A DNA stretch of 64,000 nucleotides from Gemmatimonadota bacterium (GCA_039589195.1 JBDHHV010000038.1:13288-77287); one strand, 5' to 3'; counted from the first letter of the stretch, positions 754 through 16,336 are shown. Notes: a model not told the origin generated them from the sequence alone. Numbers and translations: made by a program.

Positions 754-2316
754 ATGGAATCACCCGCTGCCACCGCGCCCGCCGCTGTCCGTCCGAAGCC
801 GCGCCTGTCGTTCTGGGAAATCTGGAACATGAGCTTCGGCTTTCTGGGCATTCAGTTCGGCTTCGCGCTCCAGAACGCGAACGTGAGCCGCATCTTCGAG
901 ACGCTGGGCGCCAGCGTGGAAAACATCCCCATTCTGTGGATCGCCGCGCCGGTCACCGGGCTCCTGGTTCAGCCGATCGTCGGTTACTTCAGCGACCGCA
1001 CCTGGAACCGGCTCGGCCGCCGCCGTCCGTATTTCCTGGGGGGAGCGATCCTGGCCTCTCTGGCCCTGGTCGCCATGCCGAACTCGCCCGCGCTATGGGT
1101 GGCGGCCGGCATGCTCTGGATCATGGACGCCTCGATCAACATCTCGATGGAGCCCTTCCGTGCGTTCGTGGGGGACAACCTGCCCTCGGAGCAGCGAACC
1201 ACCGGGTTCGCCATGCAGAGCTTCTTCATCGGCACCGGTGCGGTGGTGGCGTCCATGCTCCCCTGGCTTCTCACGGGGCAGTTCGGGGTGAGCAACGAGG
1301 CACCCGAGGGCGTGATCCCCGACTCGGTGCGCCTCTCCTTCTACCTGGGCGCCGCGGTGTTCTTCATCGCGGTGCTGTGGACGGTCATCAAGTCGAAGGA
1401 GTACTCGCCCGAGGAGATGGCATCCTTCGAGGAGAACCAGGAGCGGGAGGGCTTCGCCAAGGCGATACGGACGGCGGAGGAGTACGCGCTCAACGGCGGC
1501 CGGCAGATCCGGCTGGGCTGGATTCTCCTCGCAGTGGGTACGTTGTCCAGCGTCTGGCTGGCCAACGAGGAGCTCTATCAGGTCATGGTCCTGTCGGCCG
1601 GGGTCGGGTTCGTGGGCGTGCTCCTCATCGTGAGCGGGCGCATGCAGCGCGGCGGCCGGTACGACAACGGCTTCGTGACGATCCTGAACGACTTTCAGGA
1701 CATGCCCCACACCATGCGGCAGCTGGCCTCGGTGCAGTTCTTCTCGTGGTTCGCGCTCTTCGCCATGTGGATCTATACGACCGCCGCGGTGACCAGCCAC
1801 ATCTACGGCACCACCGACACTACCTCGGCGCTCTACAACGAGGGGGCGAACTGGGTGGGGGTCGCCTTCGGCGCCTACAACGGCGTCGCCGCCCTGGTAG
1901 CCTTTGCCATTCCGGTATTGGCGAAGAGGACCAGCCGGAAGATCGCCCACGCCATCTGCCTCGTGTGCGGCGCGCTGGGGCTCCTCTCCATCTTGGTCAT
2001 CTCGGACCCCCGCTTCCTGCTGGGCTCCATGGTGGGGGTCGGGATCGCCTGGGCGAGCATCCTCTCCATGCCCTACGCGATCTTGACCGGATCCCTGCCT
2101 CCCTCGAAGCTGGGCTACTACATGGGCGTCTTCAACTTCTTCATCGTGATCCCGCAGATCGTCGCGGCGGCCATCCTGGGCTTCTTCGTTGGACGCTTCT
2201 TCGGCGGAGAGGCGATCTACGCCCTTCTCGTCGGCGGTGTGTCCCTCGTGCTCGCCGCGGCGCTGACGCTTCGCGTGGAGGACCGGGACGACATAGCGGC
2301 GGCGGTTTCGGGCTGA
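754..2316 (+). CDS. MFS transporter, GPH/SLC45-like sugar:H+ symporter (maltose/sucrose type)
   Basis: ATG at 754 lies inside the longer 328..2316 ORF. The product has about 12 hydrophobic helices and the conserved GYFSDR..GRRRPY loop typical of sucrose/maltose-type MFS. It sits within a glucan locus. Confidence 0.8.
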   Translation: MESPAATAPAAVRPKPRLSFWEIWNMSFGFLGIQFGFALQNANVSRIFETLGASVENIPILWIAAPVTGLLVQPIVGYFSDRTWNRLGRRRPYFLGGAILASLALVAMPNSPALWVAAGMLWIMDASINISMEPFRAFVGDNLPSEQRTTGFAMQSFFIGTGAVVASMLPWLLTGQFGVSNEAPEGVIPDSVRLSFYLGAAVFFIAVLWTVIKSKEYSPEEMASFEENQEREGFAKAIRTAEEYALNGGRQIRLGWILLAVGTLSSVWLANEELYQVMVLSAGVGFVGVLLIVSGRMQRGGRYDNGFVTILNDFQDMPHTMRQLASVQFFSWFALFAMWIYTTAAVTSHIYGTTDTTSALYNEGANWVGVAFGAYNGVAALVAFAIPVLAKRTSRKIAHAICLVCGALGLLSILVISDPRFLLGSMVGVGIAWASILSMPYAILTGSLPPSKLGYYMGVFNFFIVIPQIVAAAILGFFVGRFFGGEAIYALLVGGVSLVLAAALTLRVEDRDDIAAAVSG

Positions 2317-4075: not shown

Positions 4076-6471
4076 GTGCCCGGATCATGACGGCGCTTCC
4101 CGGGATGTTCCCCGACGCGGCCCTGGTCGTCGTGGGCCTACTGGTGGGTTGCGGCGGGAGCGCGGTGGAGAGAGACGACGAGAGCCCTCAGGGGAGTGCA
4201 CAGGAGGAAGAGTTGGAGAGACGTCTCCGGGCCGAGATCCAGGGTCCCACCGCGATCCGATTCACCCTCGCCGGCGTCGAACGGCCGTCCGGACCATCGG
4301 CCTATCGCCTGACAGACGGCCACGGCCGGGAGATTCCCATCGCGGAGGTGCTGCCCAACACCGCGTCCGAGTCCCTTGTGGTCCCGGAGGTCGCGCTGGA
4401 TCCCATGCGGGTCCACTACCTGGAGGTCCCCGAGCTGGGTCTCCGGGCCCTGGTCCAGCGGGTCCCCATCTTCCGCAACCTCTACTCCTCCAAGCCCCTG
4501 GGCGCGGTTGTCTCGGACGACGGGGGCGAGACCGCCTTCCGCATCTTTTCCCCCCGGGCGCAAGCCGTGCGGCTCCATCTCTATCACGCCAAAGACGACG
4601 CACCTGCCGAGGTCTGGCGCGTCGTGGAGATGGAGAAGGACGAGGACGGAGTGTGGGAGGCCACGGAGATCGGGGATCTCCACGGCACCTGGTACGACTT
4701 CACGGTTCACGGTCCGGCCGATCCCGGGAACTGGTTCTACGAGACCCACCCCGTCCACGTCTCGGATCCCTACGCGTTGGTCAACGATGACGCCCTGGGG
4801 AAGTCGCGGGTGTGGCGGGACGGTCCTCCTCCGCCTCCCGTGTCGGGTGGCCGGCCGCGCATGGAGGACGTAGTGGCGTACGAGGTGCACGTTCAGGACT
4901 TCACCGACCTCCTTCCCGTGGGCGAAGCGGAGACCGGGACGCTCCCCGCTATGGCCCGGGCGGGGCTGGTGAACGCGCACGGCGAGCCCATCGGCTTCGA
5001 CCACCTGGCGGGTCTCGGCGTCAACGTGGTCCATCTCATGCCGGTGCAGGAGTACCTCCACTACCCCGACGCCGACTGGCAGGCCGCTTTCGCGGATGAT
5101 CCCTTCGCGCAGGCCATGGGGATCGATCGGGAGAACTACCAGTGGGGGTATCGCACGACCCACGCGTTCGCCGTGGAGAGCCGCTTCCGTTCGCGGGACG
5201 CCGAGCCCGGAGCGGAACGGGAGCAGTTCAAGGCGCTCGTCCGGGCGTTCCACGAGCGGGGCATCGCGGTGATCATCGATGTGGTGCCGAACCACACCGG
5301 CGAGAACATGGACGGGCGGCACCTGCTCCTGAACTTCAACGTCCTGGATCTCCCCTACTACTACCGCACCAACGAGGACCTCGAGCACATAGGCCCGTTC
5401 GGGAACGAGGTGAAGTCGGAGGAGCGGCCCATGGTGCAGCGCTGGATCGTCGACCAGCTGAGGCATTGGGTGGAGGGGCTGGGCGTGGACGGCTTCCGCA
5501 TCGACCTGGCCGGGCAGCTGGACGAGCAGACGCTCCTCCGGGTCAAGCAGGAGCTCCCGCAGGATCTGATCATCTACGGGGAAGCGTGGATTCCCCCCAG
5601 CGACCCCGATGTCCGCTCGAACCCCGATTGGAGTTGGTACAAGGCCGATGCGCCGATCACCTTCTTCCAGGACGACGCCCGCGACGCCTTCAAAGGCACC
5701 CCTTTCGACGTGGACAAGCGGGGGTGGGCCGGCGGAGACGGCGTCGCCCGGGACGCCACCATGCGCGGGCTCGCCAACCAACATGCCGAAGAGTCGCACG
5801 CTACGAAGGGGATCGCCTACCTGGATATCCATGACAACTGGGCCCTGGCCGATCGATACGCGCTCAGCGACGATCACAACGGGCTCGAGGGCGTGGACCT
5901 GGGCGCCATGCGGATCGCCGCCGGACTCCTCTTCACCGCGGCGGGACCGGTCGTGATCCACGGGGGGACCGAGATGCTCCGCTCCAAGGGGCTGGCGCCG
6001 CTCGAGGAATTCCGGGTGGAAGCGGCCGGCGGCACGATTTGGTTCAAGGGCCGGGACGACACCTACAACCTGCGGGCCCCGAACCGGTTCCTGTGGAACA
6101 GCCTCGTCCCCGGCTCCGATCACGCGGCCATGCGGGACTACTGGCGGGGTCTCCTGGCGCTGCGCATGTCGGAGCACGGCCGGGTCTTCCGCGTCGCCGA
6201 GGTGCCCGACGGGCACTACCGCTGGATCACCCCGGACGAAGGCACGTTACTGGGATACGTGGTCGGTGAGCGAGTCCTGGTCCTGGCCAACAGCGGCGCA
6301 GACGAGGGTGTCTTCCGGTTCGATCTGCCGGAGGGCGATTGGCGGCAGGTGGGCGGCCGCGAACGAGTGAACCTGGACGGCGTGGAGGGCGAATTCGCGC
6401 GGCTCGGCCGTGGGAGGCAGGAGGTGCCGGTGCCGGCTGGCGCGTTCCTGGTGTGGGTGGCCGACCGCTGA
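4072..6471 (+). CDS. Pullulanase-type debranching enzyme (CBM48 + GH13), lipoprotein
   Basis: GTG 4072 overlaps the amylase stop (GTGA); in-frame ATGs at 4087 and 4105 are alternative starts. Lipobox LLVGC. A CBM48-like N-domain is followed by GH13 motifs IIDVVPNHTG and GVDGFRIDLAGQ. Confidence 0.8.
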   Translation: MSARIMTALPGMFPDAALVVVGLLVGCGGSAVERDDESPQGSAQEEELERRLRAEIQGPTAIRFTLAGVERPSGPSAYRLTDGHGREIPIAEVLPNTASESLVVPEVALDPMRVHYLEVPELGLRALVQRVPIFRNLYSSKPLGAVVSDDGGETAFRIFSPRAQAVRLHLYHAKDDAPAEVWRVVEMEKDEDGVWEATEIGDLHGTWYDFTVHGPADPGNWFYETHPVHVSDPYALVNDDALGKSRVWRDGPPPPPVSGGRPRMEDVVAYEVHVQDFTDLLPVGEAETGTLPAMARAGLVNAHGEPIGFDHLAGLGVNVVHLMPVQEYLHYPDADWQAAFADDPFAQAMGIDRENYQWGYRTTHAFAVESRFRSRDAEPGAEREQFKALVRAFHERGIAVIIDVVPNHTGENMDGRHLLLNFNVLDLPYYYRTNEDLEHIGPFGNEVKSEERPMVQRWIVDQLRHWVEGLGVDGFRIDLAGQLDEQTLLRVKQELPQDLIIYGEAWIPPSDPDVRSNPDWSWYKADAPITFFQDDARDAFKGTPFDVDKRGWAGGDGVARDATMRGLANQHAEESHATKGIAYLDIHDNWALADRYALSDDHNGLEGVDLGAMRIAAGLLFTAAGPVVIHGGTEMLRSKGLAPLEEFRVEAAGGTIWFKGRDDTYNLRAPNRFLWNSLVPGSDHAAMRDYWRGLLALRMSEHGRVFRVAEVPDGHYRWITPDEGTLLGYVVGERVLVLANSGADEGVFRFDLPEGDWRQVGGRERVNLDGVEGEFARLGRGRQEVPVPAGAFLVWVADR

Positions 6472-6476
6472 TCCTG

Positions 6477-7367
6477 CTAGGTGCCGCCCGAGATCTTGCG
6501 ATACATCCCGCGCACGTTGAGCTCTCGCCAATCCTCGTAGCGGTCCCAGTCGCGGTACTCCTCGAGCAGGACCTCCGCCGCCGCCTCATCCTCGCTCATT
6601 CCCGCCTCGACGGCCGCCCGGACGGCCTCGTCCAGGTCGCGATAGTACTGGAGTTGCCGCTCGATCGCCGGGCGGTCCCCGGGCGGACCATGGCCGAACA
6701 CGATACGGTCGAAGGGGATCTCGAGCAGACCCTCGATCGCCCCGAACATGTCCGGGAAGTGGAAGCTCGCGAGGTCCCGGTACCCGAACCGATCCCGCGA
6801 TACGAAGTCGACGGCGAACGCGATGCGGTGCGCGGGCAGGTAACCGACGGCGATGTCGTCGCTGTGGCTCCGACCGAGGTAGTGGAGCTCGACCTCGCCT
6901 CCCGCCAGCGAGGCACGGTCGGAGAACGTGGAATCGGGTGGGGGCAGGTCCGGATTCGCGGCCTCACGGAGCGGAGCGTCCGCATTCTCGTGCGCGAAGA
7001 TGGGGGCACCCGACTCGAACGCCTCGCGCAGGACGGTGGCGCCGGTCGCGTGGTCGGCATCGCGATGACTGTACACGATTGCGGTCAGCTCGGTGTCCGG
7101 CACATGCCTGCGAATCTCCTCGGCGTACAGTGCCGCCGCTTCGACGGAGATCGGGTCGAACGCGACGATGCCGGCGGCGGTGCGCACGAACAGGGTATTG
7201 TGAGCCTGGAAACGGAACTGATACACCCCGTCCGCCACCTCGGTCGTCTCGTAGGGCGGCGGCTCATCGGGTTCGCTTCCCCTTTCGGCCACCGGGGGTG
7301 GGGGCCCTTCCGAGCAGCCGGCGGCTACCAGGATGAACATCCAGGGCAAGATACGCTCACGGATCAT
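6477..7367 (-). CDS. MBL-fold metallo-hydrolase lipoprotein
   Basis: Signal/lipobox LVAAGCS. Metal-binding motif YSHRDADH (HxHxDH class) and later His/Asp residues. Strong RBS AAGGAGGAG upstream. The ATG overlaps the stop of the upstream GT4 gene (ATGA). Confidence 0.75.
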   Translation of the reverse strand: MIRERILPWMFILVAAGCSEGPPPPVAERGSEPDEPPPYETTEVADGVYQFRFQAHNTLFVRTAAGIVAFDPISVEAAALYAEEIRRHVPDTELTAIVYSHRDADHATGATVLREAFESGAPIFAHENADAPLREAANPDLPPPDSTFSDRASLAGGEVELHYLGRSHSDDIAVGYLPAHRIAFAVDFVSRDRFGYRDLASFHFPDMFGAIEGLLEIPFDRIVFGHGPPGDRPAIERQLQYYRDLDEAVRAAVEAGMSEDEAAAEVLLEEYRDWDRYEDWRELNVRGMYRKISGGT

Positions 7368-8473
7368 CGGTGCTCCTCCTTGAGTTCGTGCAGCCAGCTC
7401 TCCAACGCTGCGCCGAGTTGCACGGTGTCGAAGTGCTCCTCGGCACGGCGGCGGGCTTGCGCGGCCATGCTGCTGCGCCTCGGCTCATCCTCGAGAATCT
7501 GGCGTACAGCCCGGCCCAGATCGGCAGGATCGCGCGGAGTCAGGATCCCCACGTCCCGCGTCACGATGGAGTCGACACCGCCGCCCTCATAGGCCACGCA
7601 CGGAGTGCCTCCGGCCAGCGCCTCCGCGTAGATGATCCCAAAGTGCTCCTTCTTCTCCGGACCCGCCACGAGCAACGTCGCTCCGTTGATCAACTCCGCC
7701 TTGTCGTCCGCGGAAACGAAACCCAGGAAGCGACCACGACCCTCCAGGTCACGCTCCAGCTGGGACCGAAGCTCCCCGGACCCGATGAAGAACGTCGGGG
7801 CGAGGTCCGCGTACTCCCTGGACGCCGTGACCACGTTCTGCGGTCCCTTCGAACGCGTCAGCGCCCCAGGGCAGATGACATATCGATCGGGGAGATCAAA
7901 CCGCTTGGTCGCTCCACCATTCCGCTCCGGATGGAACTCCCGCAGGTCGATTCCGCAGGGAAGCACCAGGAACCGTTCGGGTCCCACATCGACCAGCGGG
8001 CGCACGAGCGCGTCGCGGACGTAGTCCGTTGTCACCAACAGCCCGTCGGCGGCCTGAATGGCTTGCGCGATCTCCCCCCATAGCCGGTCGTCGTATCCCC
8101 CGCCGTGACGTGGTTCGATGCCGGTCCCGTGCAAGAACAGAGCGTACGGCTTGGAGGCTCGACGGCAAACCTCGAAGGTCGCGACGGCAACGAGGTTGGC
8201 ATGGTGGCCGATGACGATATCCACCCCGGCGACATACTGCTCGAGCGTCTGCTCGTAGGTATGAACGAGCTCGAGCGCTTCGCCATAAGTCATTGTGGAT
8301 ACGGTCTTTTGCGCATCCCCGGCCGAGGGCAGGTACTCGTGCACCGGCAGGGTCGCCCCCGGAAGCGGGATATCCACGTTGACCGCACCCGGGACACCTT
8401 CGCCGACCCCCGGGTGCATGAACACGACCTCGTTTCCACGAGCGAGGAGTTGGCTTGCCTGCTGCCGAGCCAC
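7364..8473 (-). CDS. Glycosyltransferase family 4 (GT-B fold, retaining)
   Basis: EX7E-type motif EHFGIIYAEALAGGTPCVAYEGGG. The conserved GT4 N-terminus (KIAIALLNAGRGSGEV) is encoded in-frame upstream of the annotated GTG 8473, but no ATG/GTG/TTG is available there (only ATC at about 8521), so the true start is uncertain. Confidence 0.75.
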   Translation of the reverse strand: MARQQASQLLARGNEVVFMHPGVGEGVPGAVNVDIPLPGATLPVHEYLPSAGDAQKTVSTMTYGEALELVHTYEQTLEQYVAGVDIVIGHHANLVAVATFEVCRRASKPYALFLHGTGIEPRHGGGYDDRLWGEIAQAIQAADGLLVTTDYVRDALVRPLVDVGPERFLVLPCGIDLREFHPERNGGATKRFDLPDRYVICPGALTRSKGPQNVVTASREYADLAPTFFIGSGELRSQLERDLEGRGRFLGFVSADDKAELINGATLLVAGPEKKEHFGIIYAEALAGGTPCVAYEGGGVDSIVTRDVGILTPRDPADLGRAVRQILEDEPRRSSMAAQARRRAEEHFDTVQLGAALESWLHELKEEHR

Positions 8474-8588
8474 TTCACCGCTCCCCCGTCCCGCATTCAG
8501 TAGCGCGATCGCGATCTTGATGGGTGAGTTCTCCTTCGAGCTTCAGGCTGGACCGGCACGGCACGGTGCACGGCTTCGGACCATCCGA

Positions 8589-9047
8589 TTAGACAATCCC
8601 TCGCTCCAATAGTCGCTTGCGGTAGGCATGCTGGGTCTTGGCGCGGGTGTACCCGAGCTGCTCGTAGAAAGGGTGCGCCTCGGCCCGCAGCACGTTGCTC
8701 CGCACCGACATCTGCTCGAGACCTCTACCGGCAGCCCACACCTCCACTGCCTCCAGGAGCTCGCGTCCGATCCCCAGCCCTCGGTGCTCCGAATCCACGA
8801 TCAACCCCAGGATCTCGCAGCGCCGCTCCGATTCCAGAAACTCCTGCTCGGAGCCGTGTATCCACCCCACCACCTGCCCGCGGCCCGACTCGGCGACAAA
8901 CACGATGTCCTCTGAGCCCCCGAGCAGACGCTCGAGCCGTCAGGCGACCGCGTCCTCGACCACGGGGTAGCCCAGAGCCGCGCCGAGCTCCGCGATGCGA
9001 GCTGCATCCTCGGGGACAGCCGAGCGGATACCTCGCGACCGCTTCAA
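8589..9047 (-). pseudogene. GNAT family N-acetyltransferase interrupted by an in-frame TGA
   Basis: The C-terminal 104 aa (8589..8903) carry the acetyl-CoA motif HRGLGIGRELL. The GNAT N-terminus (GIRSAVPEDAARIAELGAALGYP) is in the same frame upstream. The two parts are separated by TGA at 8940-8942. The only possible start is TTG 9047. Confidence 0.6.
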
Positions 9048-9083
9048 GTCGGGCGCGAGGAGATGGTCATGCCCAGGGACGTT

Positions 9084-10034
9084 TCATTCGAGCGGAATAC
9101 GGTCCTTGTTCTGCTCGAGCCATCGTTCGAACGTCAGGAGCGATGGGTTGAGCGATCGCGCGAACTCGGGGTCACGGGCGCCGCTGTAATCATCCTCGAA
9201 ATCGCGCTTGAACTGGAACATGTTCCCGATATCCTCCGCTCCCGGAAACCCGAATCCGCGGTACGCCTCGGCGGACACCTCGTTGTAGCGGACCTTCTCC
9301 CTGAGCGCCTCGCTCAACGCCGCCGCCATCTGCGTGCCCGTCAACTGCTCACCGGACACCCCGATGGTCTTCCCGATGAACTCGGGCCCCCGCTTGAAGA
9401 TTCCGTACGCACACTTCCCGATGTCCTCGGCCGCGATCCCCGGCAGCCTCGCCCCGCCCATCGGGAACGTGATGGCCAAGGTACCGTCCGGACCTCGCGT
9501 CGGCCCCGACCCGAAGAAGATGAGGTTGTCCCAGTAAAAGGACGTCAGGAGAAACGTCGTCGGCACCCCCAGGTCGGTGAATGCCGCGTTGGCCTCCGCC
9601 TTGGCGTCGAAGTGCGGGACTTTGTACCTCTCCATCAAGGTCGGCATGCGGTCGTCATCGAGCGGGACCCAGCGGCGCGTGTCCTCGAACGTGGACCAGA
9701 TGACGTGCTGGAGACCGGCGTCCGCCGCGGCCTCGGCCATGGCCCGCCCCTGCGCGCTCTCCTTCTCCGGGGAGAGGTGCTCCCAAAAGAACGTCACGCA
9801 GAACGCCCCGTACGCGCCCGCGAACGCTCGCTTCAGACTCTCGGCGTCATCCACGTCGGCCGCGACGACTTCCGCGCCAAGCTCCGCCAGCGCCCGAGCC
9901 TTGTCCGAGCTCACATCGCGCGTGAGGGCCCGGACCTGAAAGGGACTGTCGTCATCGTTCAAGATGGCTCGGGCCAACCCGCCGCCCTGCGCGCCGGTCG
10001 CCCCTACCACCGCAATGATCTTCTTATCGCTCAT
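9084..10034 (-). CDS. NmrA-like family NAD(P)-binding protein
   Basis: ATG 10034 preceded by AAAGGGAG. Rossmann motif VVGATGAQGG and NmrA/isoflavone-reductase-like length and layout. Confidence 0.75.
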   Translation of the reverse strand: MSDKKIIAVVGATGAQGGGLARAILNDDDSPFQVRALTRDVSSDKARALAELGAEVVAADVDDAESLKRAFAGAYGAFCVTFFWEHLSPEKESAQGRAMAEAAADAGLQHVIWSTFEDTRRWVPLDDDRMPTLMERYKVPHFDAKAEANAAFTDLGVPTTFLLTSFYWDNLIFFGSGPTRGPDGTLAITFPMGGARLPGIAAEDIGKCAYGIFKRGPEFIGKTIGVSGEQLTGTQMAAALSEALREKVRYNEVSAEAYRGFGFPGAEDIGNMFQFKRDFEDDYSGARDPEFARSLNPSLLTFERWLEQNKDRIPLE

Positions 10035-10233
10035 CGGTGCTCCCTTTGGAGGAGGATGCGTGCTTCCGGAGCACACTCGTACGCGCCTCTCGAGCTCATG
10101 TGCCATTATGATGGCACTCGACGAGCGCCCTCAGGAGAGGTCGACGGTGACCTCTAGCAGGCTGCCAATCCCGGTCGTGTCCGGCCAACCGCCGGCTCCG
10201 AGCCAGGGCGAGCCCTGATATGCGGTCCTTCCG

Positions 10234-11791
10234 TCACACGATGCGTCGGTCCACCGGATCCCACTCCACCTGGCGGCCGAGCTGATACGCCCGGGTAGCC
10301 ATGTGGCACGTGATGGCCTCCTGGAGCCCCTGCTCGATGTCGCAACTGGTGTTTCCGCCGTTGCGGATCACGTCCACCCATTCCGCGATGTGAAGGTTGT
10401 AGGCGTTCACCCGGCGACCACCGCGATAGGTGTACAGGAGTCCTCGACTGGCGAAATACTGGGCCGTGGCCGACGTGATCGCGTCGACTCCCCTGAACCC
10501 GGGCTGGTACGTGAACAGGGGACTGGCCGGATCGATGAGTCCTTCCTCGATCTTCTCCTTGAATCGGGTGGAGGAGCCGTCGGCGTTGATACGGAGGCCG
10601 GCGTCCACCTCCATCGTGGCATCGTGCCCCATAAAGATCCGACCTCGCCAATTCCCGTTCGCCAGGGTGGCGCTGTAGACGAGAGTCAGGTCCCGGTCCG
10701 GGTACTCCATCACGGCCTGGAAGACATCGGGTACATCCCGGCCGTCCTTGAAGTAATAGATGCCTCCCGACGCCACACAGGTCTTTGGAATCCCAAGCTC
10801 CAGGATCTGGTTCACCGAGTCGAACTCGTGGCTGAACAGATCCCCCGAGAGGCCCGTCCCGTAATCGAACCAGCAGCGCCAGCGGAAGAAGCGCTCCGGG
10901 GTGAACGGATACTTGTTCGGCGCCGGTCCCTGGAACTCATCCCAATCGATGGTCTCGGGGGTCCCCCGCTCGTCGATCTCCCACACCCAGGCCCCCCAGG
11001 GGTCGTTCCGGTTGGTGGTCGTCTCCACCAGCGTGAGGGGTCCCAGAAGTCCGGCATCAAGGACTTCCTTGGCCTTGATGTGGCTCTCGGTCTGCCGTTG
11101 TTGATGCCCGAGTTGGAACACGATGTCCGAGCCCTTGACGGCCTCGTACATCCGGTACGTCTCTTCCTCCTCCCGGGTCATGGCCTTTTCCACGTAGATG
11201 TGCTTTCCGGCCGCCACCGCGTCGATGCACATCTGTGAATGCCAGTGGTCCGGTGTGGCGATCATGACCGCGTCCACGTCGTTGCTTTCCAGCAGGTCCG
11301 TGTAGCGGCGGAAGCGGGTGGCCGGCGGTGATCTCTACGTTCAGATGATCCTGCTGCATGAACGTCTCGAGACCCTTGTGACGCGGATCCTCTTCGGCGG
11401 CCTCCCGCGCGCTCTCGATCCACTCGGGGTGGGCGAAGCCGGCGCTCCGGACGAGGTTCTCTCCCTCCCCCCCAAAGCCGATGATCCCGATCCGTATCAA
11501 CTGCGATGGGGGCCGTGATATGGCATCGGGGATGATGGCCGGAGCACCGTCCGAGATCCCCAGCTCGGCCATGATGGCCTCGCGCTTGGCGTCCTGGCCC
11601 AGCTTCTTCTGATACCAGCCCCCGAAGAACAATCCCAGGACCGGCACCGACGCCAGGGCCTTCAAGACGTCACGGCGCGGGATTCCGGCCGCCGGGGTCG
11701 AGGCCGGCGCGTCGCTCTCAGACGCCGGTTGCAGGGAGGGCGCCGTCTGCGGGGCGGGCTCCGTCGGGTCGTTCTTGTTCTCGTCGCTCAT
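10234..11791 (-). pseudogene. Gfo/Idh/MocA family oxidoreductase with TAT signal, reading frame broken by an apparent frameshift
   Basis: N-terminal ORF 11057..11791 carries RRDVLK plus IRIGIIGFGG, then runs into nonsense. C-terminal ORF 10234..11277 carries DAVMIATPDHWH and the rest of the family fold. The frames switch within about 11305-11335 at a GC homopolymer-rich stretch (accgccggccacccgc). Confidence 0.65.
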
Positions 11792-11817: not shown

Positions 11818-12339
11818 CTATCCGACGCTCTGAGCGTACCGCTTCCGGAAGATCAATCGGTCCAACCCCACCTGGTTAGAGGTGGGGAAGCCGAAGATGA
11901 CCAGAAGAGCGGCCAGCTCGACCAGGATCTTGTTCACGATCAGGTAGCTCCCCTCGGTGGGAATCGAGTACTCGAGACCCGGGAAGGGGGGAGCCGCCAG
12001 GTAGTACAGGAGAAGCATGGCGACTCCGGCGAGGGCTGCGGGCCGGGCGAAGGCTCCGACCAACAGTGCCAGGCCGACGAGCAGGAGACCCCACTGATTC
12101 AGGTAGTCCACGACTGTGAGGGCACCCGGGTTCGTGGCGAGAGAGAGAAACTGCTTCTCGAACCAACCCTGGGACTGCTCCAGGTATCCCGCTGACGTCC
12201 AGAACGAGTTGGTGATCTTGGCCAGCCCTTCGTACATGAAGTGCCAGCCCACGAGCATTCTGAGACCCACGAGGGCCGTGAGCTGAAACCTCCCGTACTC
12301 ACGCATCCCAGTCGGGTCTCCCGTGGTTGCGGTCGGCAT
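11818..12339 (-). CDS. DoxX family membrane protein
   Basis: Four predicted TM helices. DoxX-like sequence (MLVGWHFMYEGLAKI...). RBS AGGAGAGG. Confidence 0.7.
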   Translation of the reverse strand: MPTATTGDPTGMREYGRFQLTALVGLRMLVGWHFMYEGLAKITNSFWTSAGYLEQSQGWFEKQFLSLATNPGALTVVDYLNQWGLLLVGLALLVGAFARPAALAGVAMLLLYYLAAPPFPGLEYSIPTEGSYLIVNKILVELAALLVIFGFPTSNQVGLDRLIFRKRYAQSVG

Positions 12340-12354: not shown

Positions 12355-13446
12355 CTATTGGACTTCAGCGGCGCTCCGCCAGCCACGCGATCTGAGCTGC
12401 CGGTTCGCCTCGTCGATGATCAGACACGCACAATCGGGAAGGGAATCGATGAAGGTCAGCCCTCGCTCCGGGCCCATGACGAACACGGCCGTGGCCAGTG
12501 CATCCGCGGCGACGGCGGTGGGAGCCACGACGGTGACGCTCTGCCAGGGTCGGGGTGACATGCCGGTCATGCTGCTGACGATGTGATGACAGGTGCGCTC
12601 ACCGTCGAAGTAGATCTCGTAGCTGCCGGAAGTCGCCACGGCACCCGCCGGTACGGTGAGCACGTCCGGGTATGTGCCGTCCTTGAGCGGACTCTGGACC
12701 GCCACCCTCCACGCCTCCCCGTCCTCCCGCTTTCCGCCGGCACGGATGTCACCACCGCCGTTGATCAGGTAATCGCGGATCCCATCGGCCTGAAGACACT
12801 TCGCCATGACATCCACCACGTAACCCTTCGCGATGCCATCGAGAGTGAGTCCCATGCCGCCTTTGCCGAGGGTGATGGAGCGGGAGCCGACCCGCACGGC
12901 GTTCCCGTCCACCAGCTCCAGGGCCTCGCGAATCTCGGGTCGGGAAGGGGGACGGGGGGCGGCGGGCCCCGGCCCGCCGTTCTCCGCGGAGCGGACAGGC
13001 TCGCCGTTGCCGGCCGAGCGAACCGGCGCACTCCTCCGGCAGAGGTCCACGAGGGGTTGAACGGTGATGTCGAACGCGCCCAGGCTCAGGTCGTGATACT
13101 CGCGAGCGAGCGAAACCACGGTGGATAGTTCCGGCGGGGGAAGCTCGATGCGCCCCTCGGCGCTCAGGCAGGTGACGGCCGAGCCGGGGTCGTAACGGTT
13201 CAGGAGGCCGACCACCCGGTCCATTTCCGCGAACGCCCGGCCCATGGCCTCCTGGGCCTGGTGTACGGAGGCGTGAATAGCCGTGACGGAAACCAGGGTC
13301 CCCATGGACGGGCGGACCGCGGAGATCCGGTATCGCCCGCCGCTCACGGGGAAGGACTCGGTCGTCACCGGTGGGGATTCGACACGCTCGAAGCCCAGGG
13401 CCGTCAGGGCAGCCATCTTCTCGGCTAGACGTGTAGCTTCGTCCAC
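12355..13446 (-). CDS. apbE: FAD:protein FMN transferase (ApbE family)
   Basis: ApbE signature region GGMGLTLDGIAKGYVVD and C-terminal TSGSYE. GTG start with no signal peptide (ATG 13416 is an alternative start). Internal imperfect 27-nt tandem duplication around 12968-13030 (SAGNGEPVRSAENGGP). Confidence 0.75.
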   Translation of the reverse strand: MDEATRLAEKMAALTALGFERVESPPVTTESFPVSGGRYRISAVRPSMGTLVSVTAIHASVHQAQEAMGRAFAEMDRVVGLLNRYDPGSAVTCLSAEGRIELPPPELSTVVSLAREYHDLSLGAFDITVQPLVDLCRRSAPVRSAGNGEPVRSAENGGPGPAAPRPPSRPEIREALELVDGNAVRVGSRSITLGKGGMGLTLDGIAKGYVVDVMAKCLQADGIRDYLINGGGDIRAGGKREDGEAWRVAVQSPLKDGTYPDVLTVPAGAVATSGSYEIYFDGERTCHHIVSSMTGMSPRPWQSVTVVAPTAVAADALATAVFVMGPERGLTFIDSLPDCACLIIDEANRQLRSRGWRSAAEVQ

Positions 13447-13652
13447 GTTGTGCCTCGACTCCTGTGGGGGATCGCTCTCGGACGCCGGAGTCCCACACCA
13501 CGAATCTCTCGCAAAAGAGCGGCTGCCGCGAGGGTCTCCAACCGTCCGGATCCTCAGCGGCTTATTATCGTGAGGTCCCGGAACCGGAACGCCGAAGGGT
13601 CGGTTATTCAGGCAACCAGGCCCAATCGCGACCCGAGTACGGGAGCGCCCAA

Positions 13653-14654
13653 ATGCCGGAGATCCATAAGGCTGACCCGGGAGCGCGGCGGAAGACGATC
13701 ATGCTCCTGGCCGTCATCGTGCCGATCGGGCTCATCGCGCTCGGTCTTCTGATGCGATTCAGTCCTGGCATCGTGAACGGGCTCCAGGATTGGATACTCG
13801 GCGACCCGGCGCGCACGCTCGTCCGGGTCAAGCTCGTAGTGGCTGGAGGGTTGGTCATATTCGTCACCCCGTTGCTGGCCGTGGGGTGGTACTTCTGGCG
13901 CCTGGGCTCCCGCGTCATCCGGACGGAGCGTCACCCCCCGCCCGAGTCGAAGCTCGTTCGAGATGCCGTCATACGTCGCGGCGCGGCTGCCGTTCGGGTG
14001 GGCTGGTTCTTCAGGGTCGTGGGTGTGCTACTCCTCCTGCTCCTGATCGGGATAGTACGTATCACCTGGAGTCTGGCTTCCCGGATGGATGCATTGCAGG
14101 CGGCGTGCTTTGACCAGGTGGGCGTCCGGTACGCGGACGCGCAGCGCGCCTGGCAGAACACGTTGCAGGATGTGGTCATCGAGAGCCGCCCCGAATACGC
14201 GGAGGCGGCACGAGTGGCGGTCGGGCTCCAGCTCAGCCTGATCGATCGCAAGGAAGCTCGGCTCGCCCACCTGCTACGTGCCCACCCGGAACGGGTGCCT
14301 CGGCACGAGGGACTTGCCGCCTTCGTGGATGCAGCCGCCGAGTGGTCGGATGAGGATGAAGCGGCGCTGCGCTCCGAGAGCTCATCCGCCGAGGCCCTGA
14401 GCGCGAGGGTGGACTCGCTCCGGGCCCTGAACGATGCGTACTCCGACTGGCCGGCGCTCAGAGAGGCCATGCGCGGAGAGCTGACGCAGACCGATGAGTA
14501 TCGTGCGGCGCTGGACTCCCTCGTCGCTCGCCAGACTGAGCTCGAGGAAATGCTCGCGGGCTGCGCGCTCGAGAACCTGCGTGAGCGCATCGAAGACCAG
14601 GCGCCGCAGCAGCCTGCCGGACGAGGTCGGCGCGAGTCCGGAGGCGCAGCCTGA
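13653..14654 (+). CDS. Hypothetical membrane protein (3 TM helices + helical C-terminal domain)
   Basis: ATG 13653 with GGGAG 7 nt upstream, inside the longer 13464..14654 ORF. No recognisable family motifs. Confidence 0.55.
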   Translation: MPEIHKADPGARRKTIMLLAVIVPIGLIALGLLMRFSPGIVNGLQDWILGDPARTLVRVKLVVAGGLVIFVTPLLAVGWYFWRLGSRVIRTERHPPPESKLVRDAVIRRGAAAVRVGWFFRVVGVLLLLLLIGIVRITWSLASRMDALQAACFDQVGVRYADAQRAWQNTLQDVVIESRPEYAEAARVAVGLQLSLIDRKEARLAHLLRAHPERVPRHEGLAAFVDAAAEWSDEDEAALRSESSSAEALSARVDSLRALNDAYSDWPALREAMRGELTQTDEYRAALDSLVARQTELEEMLAGCALENLRERIEDQAPQQPAGRGRRESGGAA

Positions 14655-14821: not shown

Positions 14822-16336
14822 ATGAAGCGACGCACGTTCCTCCGTTCCTCCCTCGCCGCTGCCGCCGCCGCCACCGTTACCCTCCCTCGCCCTCGATCGC
14901 TGGCGGGACTGTATCAAGAGGCGCCGCAGGTTCCACCCGACGTGAACGCAGTCACGGGCGACGGTGCGGAGATCACGCTCAGGGGAAGCGAAATCGCGGA
15001 CCTGAGCGGGCGGCTGAAGGGGCGTCTGCTGCTGTCCGGTGACGAGGGCTACGACGCCGCACGGCGTATCCTCAACCCGTCCTTCGACAAGCACCCCGCC
15101 CTCGTCGCTCAGGTGACCGGCGTCGCCGACATCCGGACCGCGGTGGACTTCGCGCGCGATCACGAGCTACTGGTCGCGGTCAAATGCGGCGGACACAGCG
15201 CCTCGGGGAAGTCGACCTGCGACGGCGGCATGCAGATCGACCTGTCCCCCTTCCGGGGTACGCGCATCGATCCCGACGCCCGCAAGGCCTGGGTGACAGG
15301 GGGGAGCCTCCTGGGCCAGCTGGATCACGAGGCCATGGCTTTCGGGCTCGTGACACCCATGGGGACTGTCTCGCATACGGGTGTGGGCGGGCTCGTCACC
15401 GGGGGTGGGTTCGGGCGGCTCGCTCGCCGATTCGGCCTCGCCGTCGACAACCTCACCAGCGTGCACGTGGTGACGGCCGACGGCCAGTTCCACCGCGCGA
15501 ACGCGGAGGAGAACTCCGACCTGTTCTGGGGTGTGCGCGGGGGCGGCGGGAACTTCGGGATCGTGACGGACTTCGAGTTCGACCTTCACCCGATGCAACG
15601 CGAGGTCGTCGGAGGTGCCATCGTGTTTCCGATCGACCGGGCCGCAGAGGTCCTGAGTCTCTTCTCGGAGTACAGCCTCGAAGCCCCTGATGAGCTTAGC
15701 ATGGGCTTCTTCGTGTCCCATCCGCCCGGAGGCGAACAGCCCGCGGCCGGTATCGGCGTGTGTTACTCGGGGCCCCAGAACGACGCAGACGGCGTCCTGG
15801 CACCCATCCGCAAATTGGGCAACCCGCTGCACGACGGGTTCGAGACCATGGACTACGTCGCCCTCCAGAAATCCGGCGACGTCGACGACCCGAGAGCCCG
15901 CGCCGGCTACCTGAAGAGCGGCTTCCTCACGGAGATGCCCGAGGGTCTGATCTCGGCGATCGTGGAGGGCTTGGAGGGGCACCCGGACCGCGCCACCGCC
16001 GTCTTCTACCAGCAAAGCGGCGGCGCGATCGGTCGGGTCGCGAACGACGCCATGGCGTTCTCGCACCGCGATGCCATCGGCAACCTCCTCAGCGCGGTCG
16101 ACTGGGAGCATGGGTGGAGGGACCCGACCGAGCACATCGCCTGGGAAAGGCGGTTCTGGTCGACGCTGGAGCCGTTCACGAAGGGTTTCTACACGAACGA
16201 TCTGGAGGTCGAAGAGACGTCTGCCGGGGTCAACGCTAATTTCCGGGAGAACTACCCCCGGCTGGTGGAGCTCAAGAACAAGTACGACCCGGGCAACCTG
16301 TTCCGCCTGAACGCGAACATCCAGCCGACGGTCTGA
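14822..16336 (+). CDS. FAD-linked oxidase, berberine-bridge-enzyme-like (VAO/PCMH family), TAT-exported
   Basis: TAT motif RRTFLRSSLAAAAAA. FAD-binding PCMH-type region with VKCGGHS (His for covalent FAD). BBE-like C-terminal region. Confidence 0.8.
   Translation: MKRRTFLRSSLAAAAAATVTLPRPRSLAGLYQEAPQVPPDVNAVTGDGAEITLRGSEIADLSGRLKGRLLLSGDEGYDAARRILNPSFDKHPALVAQVTGVADIRTAVDFARDHELLVAVKCGGHSASGKSTCDGGMQIDLSPFRGTRIDPDARKAWVTGGSLLGQLDHEAMAFGLVTPMGTVSHTGVGGLVTGGGFGRLARRFGLAVDNLTSVHVVTADGQFHRANAEENSDLFWGVRGGGGNFGIVTDFEFDLHPMQREVVGGAIVFPIDRAAEVLSLFSEYSLEAPDELSMGFFVSHPPGGEQPAAGIGVCYSGPQNDADGVLAPIRKLGNPLHDGFETMDYVALQKSGDVDDPRARAGYLKSGFLTEMPEGLISAIVEGLEGHPDRATAVFYQQSGGAIGRVANDAMAFSHRDAIGNLLSAVDWEHGWRDPTEHIAWERRFWSTLEPFTKGFYTNDLEVEETSAGVNANFRENYPRLVELKNKYDPGNLFRLNANIQPTV

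Follow-up and report, generated by a model that had tools for sequence, protein, structure and literature searches.

A probable AUC start codon, a nonsense mutation and a private deletion in neighbouring genes of a Gemmatimonadota bacterium

Introduction

Do several disrupted reading frames that lie side by side record one event, or do they have separate causes? The question is raised by positions 6477-11791 of a 64,000-nt stretch of DNA from a Gemmatimonadota bacterium (GCA_039589195.1 JBDHHV010000038.1:13288-77287; the window, hereafter), in which a flagged segment of 4.4 kb sits within a minus-strand string of genes for ApbE, DoxX, a Gfo/Idh/MocA oxidoreductase (Gfo), an NmrA-like protein, a GNAT acetyltransferase, a GT4 glycosyltransferase and a metallo-beta-lactamase-fold protein (MBL). 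An initial annotation of this DNA had treated a GT4 gene without a usable start, a GNAT gene split by a stop codon and a Gfo gene that changes frame as one cluster of lesions; the three differ in kind and distribution and hence do not go back to one event. We consider it rather probable that they have three separate causes, namely a GT4 gene that starts at AUC, a GNAT gene with a nonsense codon and a Gfo gene with a deletion private to the window sequence. The cluster is heterogeneous: it combines a probable non-lesion, an ordinary pseudogene and a private deletion, to which one misread gene boundary is added. Most of this is ordinary, apart from the AUH start, which would be a new case of a known rare phenomenon and is of modest novelty.

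Results

A candidate AUC start codon in the GT4 gene

The GT4 gene (7364-8521, minus strand) comprises 385 codons from a proposed start at ATC 8521-8519 to the stop TGA 7366-7364, which overlaps the ATG of the downstream MBL gene (ATGA), and its product matches Pfam families PF00534 and PF13439 above their cut-offs. The initial annotation had placed the GT4 N-terminus upstream of the first usable start, GTG 8473, with ATC alone available, and we confirmed this in the sequence: the codons for the conserved N-terminus IKIAIALLNAGRGSGEV precede GTG 8473 and begin with ATC 8521-8519 (minus strand), while the frame is without ATG, GTG or TTG from an in-frame TGA (8543-8545, minus strand) down to that GTG, which is residue 17. 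The region reads TGA 8545-8543, then AGC TCG AAG GAG AAC TCA CCC ATC, and includes a Shine-Dalgarno (SD) motif, AAGGAG (8531-8536, minus strand), 9 nt upstream of the ATC. An upstream canonical start or translational coupling was considered and rejected, since the TGA shuts the frame seven codons upstream of the ATC. Between GNAT and GT4, in the GT4 frame, lies a 13-codon open reading frame (ORF; 8543-8584, minus strand) that runs from ATG 8584 through MVRSRAPCRAGPA to TGA 8545-8543 and whose stop is preceded by GCC, as is the internal stop of GNAT; nothing favouring function or readthrough of this ORF was found.

Homology places the ATC precisely. The GT4 protein has 580 homologue matches (best 75% identity) with the consensus N-terminus M[KR][IV]AILLLNAGRGSGEV, and the homologue start M[KR][IV]AILLLNAG aligns with I-K-I-A of the window, so that the ATC stands exactly in the column of the family's start Met. 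At this column, 62 metagenome loci carry ATG (52), GTG (5), TTG (2), ATA (1) or CTA/CTG (2); a canonical ATG, GTG or TTG is present in 59 of them, and in each of the two CTA/CTG loci an ATG lies upstream in frame. Neither a frameshift nor a stop was found across the 385 codons, and the window protein departs from the family at 2 of 168 highly conserved columns, compared to a median of 3 among homologues. An AlphaFold model of the protein (pLDDT 93.3) assigns beta1 to residues 2-6 and helix 1 to residues 14-27. According to this model, a start at V17 (GTG 8473) would cost the protein beta1 and the Gly-rich loop, and a start at M35 would additionally cost helix 1 and most of beta2; either annotated start would strip the N-terminal Rossmann domain of core elements. 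The public calls for the population (L081, L082 and L085, see below) give a GT4 of 351 aa from ATG 8419, which is residue 35.

Overall, the AUC of the window GT4, like the AUA of some relatives (see below), probably serves as a near-cognate start codon, whether tolerated or conserved, in which case the gene is intact and carries no lesion. The initiator tRNA would pair with AUC 8521-8519, placed there by the strong AAGGAG motif 9 nt upstream. The codon, the SD motif and the homology were read from the sequence, and from them we infer translation from AUC. If figures from Escherichia coli hold, the output of GT4 would be low, as AUC initiates with fMet in that species at roughly 0.02-3% of the level of AUG (bioRxiv 10.1101/063800).

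ATC or ATA at the start position of related GT4 genes

In the nearest clade, an Ile codon occupies the start position in gene calls that open inside the conserved GT4 block. The sequences at this position are CCG ATC AGA ATC GCC ATG ATG (L090), CCC ATC AAG ATC GGC ATG ATG (L091), CCG ATA CGA ATC GCA ATG ATG ATG (L089) and GTC ATA AGA GTC GCC ATC ATA (L167). All five members with ATC or ATA (ATH), the window included, have an SD motif of 5-7 nt located 7-9 nt upstream of the ATH codon, and an ATG-start relative (L163) has the identical AAGGAGAAC followed by 6 nt and ATG. The variation in the three codons that follow the ATH is that of a coding sequence, with Lys or Arg encoded by AAG, AGA or CGA and Ala by GCG, GCC or GCA. 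In the window, in L090 and in L091 the frame is closed by a stop 5-10 codons upstream and no canonical start intervenes, and ATH at this position was found in unrelated sequencing projects as well. Gene callers also shorten the ATH-start relatives P0006, P0009 and P0012 to MMLLN...

Comparison with sister assemblies and a syntenic relative

Sister contigs were traced via two recorded products, NmrA of 316 aa and the GNAT fragment of 104 aa, and they come from four separate metagenome assemblies of the Joint Genome Institute (JGI): 3300041077 (L081/L086), -79 (L083), -80 (L082/L084) and -85 (L085). The literature yielded nothing on the sample and assembly accessions. They share about 99.6-99.9% identity with the window, L085 being a slightly more divergent strain. 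Compared base by base, positions 8519-8521, 8940-8942 and 9084-9086 are unchanged in L081, L082, L083 and L085, and because four separate assemblies are identical there, a base-call error is excluded at the GT4 ATC, the GNAT TGA and the NmrA stop. The initial annotation's alternative of local assembly errors fails at these three sites and could fit the Gfo gene (see below). Of the roughly 50 differences that separate L085 from the window, about 40 fall in 438-1993, a region of an MFS transporter and a GH77 gene, which resembles a recombination tract or hypervariable segment and in which a 37-nt deletion of L082 is also located.

A more distant syntenic relative (L087; GCA_039588275.1), with ~84% identity in the flanks, has the gene order ApbE, DoxX, Gfo, GNAT, MBL and is without NmrA and GT4. 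When L087:8323-11385 was set against window 6477-11791, Gfo, GNAT and MBL were contiguous in L087. The L087 GNAT ends ...ERGHNQQKEEHR*, extending across the MBL ribosome-binding site, whereas the window GNAT has the family-typical end ...ERGIV* and the C-terminus of the window GT4, ...LHELKEEHR*, falls at the same ATGA overlap with MBL. A comparison of these ends suggests a loss of GT4 from the relative by deletion, and not an insertion in the window.

Along the gene string (all minus strand), ApbE occupies 12355-13446, DoxX 11818-12339 and MBL 6477-7367. Pfam backs each family assignment, with scores over the gathering threshold of 73.4 bits for PF00534, 62.8 for PF00583, 176 for PF05368 and 31.8 for PF01408 (the latter in the C-terminal Gfo fragment), and NCBIfam yields no specific function. 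Scans for promoters and terminators and against Rfam were uninformative. Of 41 long ORFs with high GC content at third codon positions, 27 end in TGA, which makes it the most frequent ordinary stop of the window; this agrees with the initial annotation, which had called TGA the normal stop, and a genome-wide reassignment of TGA was rejected.

A nonsense codon in the GNAT gene

The GNAT gene (8589-9047, minus strand; PF00583) has 152 codons, from TTG 9047-9045 to TAA 8591-8589. That it is split by an in-frame TGA, as the initial annotation stated, was borne out: the premature TGA (8940-8942, minus strand) is codon 36 of 152, in the context GCC TGA C, and it lies inside the GNAT domain. The annotation had also proposed a comparison with orthologues, and this revealed a sense codon in relatives, which is CGC (Arg) in L087. 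A sense codon also stands there in 118 homologues and in all 33 homologues of alignment A1. Residues at this position are R, E, Q, G, A, T or H, and because they are never Cys or Trp, selenocysteine is excluded at the TGA. A selenocysteine reading was also rejected for its lack of Cys/Sec homologues, of a structure resembling a selenocysteine insertion sequence (SECIS) and of an Rfam match around the TGA; the window contains no tRNA that we could find, tRNA-Sec included. An RNA fold of the 86 nt spanning the TGA (8945-8860, mostly downstream) was no better than that of shuffled sequences (z = -0.49).

The window GNAT retains all 33 listed invariant residues of the family, and it carries the substitution S22G, upstream of the TGA, by which a Ser present in 118 of 118 homologues is lost. 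We propose a normally delimited gene, from TTG 9047 to TAA 8589, that carries a nonsense mutation at the position of the orthologue's Arg codon. GNAT is best read as a young nonsense pseudogene, its stop shared across the sampled population, that yields at most trace amounts of full-length enzyme via the intrinsically weak UGA-C stop. Public calls start GNAT at GTG 8903 (104 aa), so that about 48 residues are lost from the start of the domain.

The boundary between NmrA and GNAT

The NmrA-like gene (9084-10034, minus strand; 316 aa; PF05368) starts at ATG 10034, 7 nt after GGGAG, and ends at TGA 9086-9084. In alignments, homologues cover the long ORF from residue 25 to 340, its very end, which identifies this TGA as the normal NmrA stop; the 316-aa form is an exact match to recorded gene products, and an exact look-up found the long 340-aa ORF not on record. 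Twelve codons past the stop, TTG 9047-9045 falls in the alignment column where GNAT homologues have their initial Met or Leu, a Leu start being called for some of them, and it aligns with the GTG start of the syntenic L087 orthologue. The initial annotation was right that NmrA and GNAT lie in the same frame. It had found no GNAT start after the NmrA stop because ATG and GTG alone were sought, so that the TTG was overlooked, and the polypeptide of 500+ aa that it drew up from the two genes did not survive: a fusion by double readthrough was rejected, as NmrA ends at the C-terminus of its family and GNAT has its own TTG start. The frame common to the two genes is a coincidence, with a one-in-three chance for adjacent genes.

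A scan of the genome collection for NmrA found 80 loci with 65-77% identity across many phyla; none was syntenic, which left the scan of no use for orthology. The loci lie in metagenome-assembled genomes (MAGs) with the labels Bacteroidota, Ignavibacteriota, Acidobacteriota, Nitrospirota, Gemmatimonadota and others. Such identity across phyla without a shared gene neighbourhood suggests frequent horizontal transfer of NmrA.

An 89-nt deletion in the Gfo gene

The gene for the Gfo/Idh/MocA oxidoreductase, which bears a twin-arginine translocation (TAT) signal (10234-11791, minus strand), is disrupted. The frame switch that the initial annotation saw near 11320 is real, and we located it at 11325/11326; its attribution to a GC homopolymer did not hold, since no homopolymer is present and the window instead is short of 89 nt compared to four assemblies and the orthologue. 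The missing segment (L081:8622-8710; junction 11325-11326, minus strand) encodes GVCDVFDVRAERGLVAASNAVGPGAGHSGR, and its out-of-frame loss removes 30 conserved residues of the NAD-binding domain, 28 of which are the same in the 87%-identical L087 orthologue. In L081, L082, L083 and L085 the 89 nt are present and the Gfo ORF has 548 aa, and the L087 orthologue has 538 aa. A repeat-mediated collapse was also rejected, as flanking direct repeats were not found and microhomology amounts to at most 3 nt (CCG). PF01408, PF19051 and PF22725 match the C-terminal part of Gfo, the best NCBIfam match is a glycoside 3-dehydrogenase model, below threshold, and neither Gfo fragment was on record in an exact look-up. 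The truncation is limited to the window sequence and stems either from a variant private to the strain or from an artefact of the assembly.

Two observations bear on this choice. The window also differs by single nucleotide polymorphisms (SNPs) from the sister contigs at 13939 (all four assemblies), at 5946 (the three covering it) and at 10056-10061, and with these it may be a real distinct haplotype that carries a real deletion. The last of these sites, which lies between Gfo and NmrA and ~25 nt before the NmrA ATG, has two substitutions and an extra T relative to all four assemblies. On the other side, L082 has four private deletions of 37-134 nt relative to the window, none with flanking repeats, so that lesions like the Gfo deletion recur in this data set, and this could equally point to an assembler artefact. 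The L082 deletions are located at window positions 1537-1573, 13393-13526, 14897-14938 and 15640-15720, and two of these interrupt coding sequences, one for an MFS transporter and one for an FAD/BBE oxidase.

Discussion

Besides the window-specific SNPs and the private L082 deletions just described, several findings weigh against the reading of three separate causes set out here. Three of the four other ATH members of the GT4 clade have ATG ATG four codons downstream, which could be used as canonical starts, and L167 has an ATG five codons upstream of its ATA; the window GT4, alone among the ATH members, has its nearest canonical start more than 5 codons from the consensus position. If the relatives use canonical starts, the window GT4 would be left as a start-less pseudogene. 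The grouping of four ATH genes has 41% bootstrap support, and a very recent loss of function in GT4 would not yet be visible as decay. Regarding GNAT, the gene departs from 5 of 65 highly conserved columns, equal to the intact L087 orthologue (5/65), and its TGA has C at +4. UGA followed by C is the weakest, that is leakiest, termination context documented in bacteria (PMC5289835), so a functional product at a low level is possible. A point on the other side is that the window no longer has the two ATGs downstream (ATG ATG became ATC GCG, which takes three changes or more) and has kept a pristine ORF of 385 codons, from which we infer that these ATGs were not the functional start.

The rival that we take most seriously, as a real possibility short of the favoured one, is that the lesions are sequencing or assembly errors of the window contig. 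It would account for an 89-nt Gfo deletion that four other assemblies do not share, and the private deletions of L082 hint that artefactual mid-size deletions occur in this data set, but the ATC and both TGAs are base-for-base the same in four JGI assemblies, the divergent L085 included, and ATH at the GT4 start recurs in unrelated projects. It is unlikely, in our estimate, that the whole segment is a decaying operon in which relaxed selection on a sugar-modification locus led to a lost GT4 start, a GNAT nonsense codon and a Gfo deletion. That view, which the initial annotation had raised, is supported only for GNAT, whose nonsense codon is found in all sampled assemblies; GT4 is probably undamaged and the Gfo break is private, with an intact gene in four of the five assemblies of the population, so that its loss is not population-wide. 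The absence of GT4 and NmrA from L087 implies that both are dispensable in the lineage, and the isolated position of the window GT4 among the ATH members and the weakness of AUC as a start in E. coli would also fit decay. Against this stand the undamaged 385 codons of GT4, with fewer deviations at conserved columns than the median homologue, and the recurrence of ATC or ATA in four other genes with conserved SD spacing.

Another explanation, which we regard as distinctly improbable, is that the GNAT UGA, and possibly also the UGA 8545-8543 before GT4, is a programmed or tolerated leaky stop at which a near-cognate tRNA reads through a few percent of the time, so that a little full-length GNAT would be produced by design. 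The UGA-C context favours it, as do the scarcity of C at +4 (only 3 of 23 genuine TGA stops of the window), the stability of the TGA across strains and the retention of all 33 listed invariant residues in the two GNAT halves. Base composition alone, however, predicts C at +4 about one third of the time, an invariant Ser is lost upstream of the stop, no downstream structure or Rfam match was detected, and the TGA is not conserved beyond the population (CGC in L087, sense codons in 118 homologues). Least probable of all is the proposal that the AUC of GT4 and the UGA-C of GNAT are selected low-efficiency signals, for near-cognate initiation and leaky termination, which keep two adjacent sugar- or amine-modifying enzymes at trace levels, with AUH initiation then ancestral and conserved in a Gemmatimonadota GT4 subclade. 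We retain three separate causes as the preferred account of the segment.

More generally, a comparison of independent assemblies of one population can dissolve a "cluster of lesions" into unrelated causes. Gene callers cut both enzymes at their N-termini, which leaves 351 aa of GT4 and 104 aa of GNAT, and the cut GT4 would lose essential elements of the N-terminal fold. Surveys based on annotated starts reported AUG-to-AUH switches as extremely rare, about 1 in 61,358 (PMC5622118), and annotation itself may hide such switches; the GT4 clade offers several natural candidates for AUC or AUA initiation outside E. coli.

Compared to known systems, the Gfo deletion resembles other mid-size deletions in MAGs in that its 89 nt are missing from one assembly only and a sister assembly, L082, shows similar private deletions, but it is explained by neither a flanking direct repeat nor a homopolymer. 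GNAT is like other nonsense-mutation pseudogenes in having one premature stop that is shared across strains and an intact orthologue in a sister species, and unlike typical ones in the weak UGA-C context of that stop and in showing almost no further decay. With programmed UGA readthrough or selenocysteine recoding it shares an in-frame UGA with conserved coding on both sides, whereas the stop is not conserved in orthologues and neither a SECIS-like nor a stimulatory structure was found. For GT4 the closest parallels are infC and pcnB, the only confirmed natural cases in E. coli, both with AUU (10.1101/063800). GT4 differs from them in its codon, AUC or AUA rather than AUU, and in being an uncharacterised gene of Gemmatimonadota-like genomes known from sequence, and it shows no apparent regulatory logic such as IF3 autoregulation; conservation of its ATH is patchy, at 5 of ~20 clade members. 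Similar to infC and pcnB, it has a near-cognate AUH codon at the start position behind an SD motif, the codon possibly being retained among relatives, and by analogy with the two E. coli genes its translation would be expected to be low and sensitive to IF3 proofreading.

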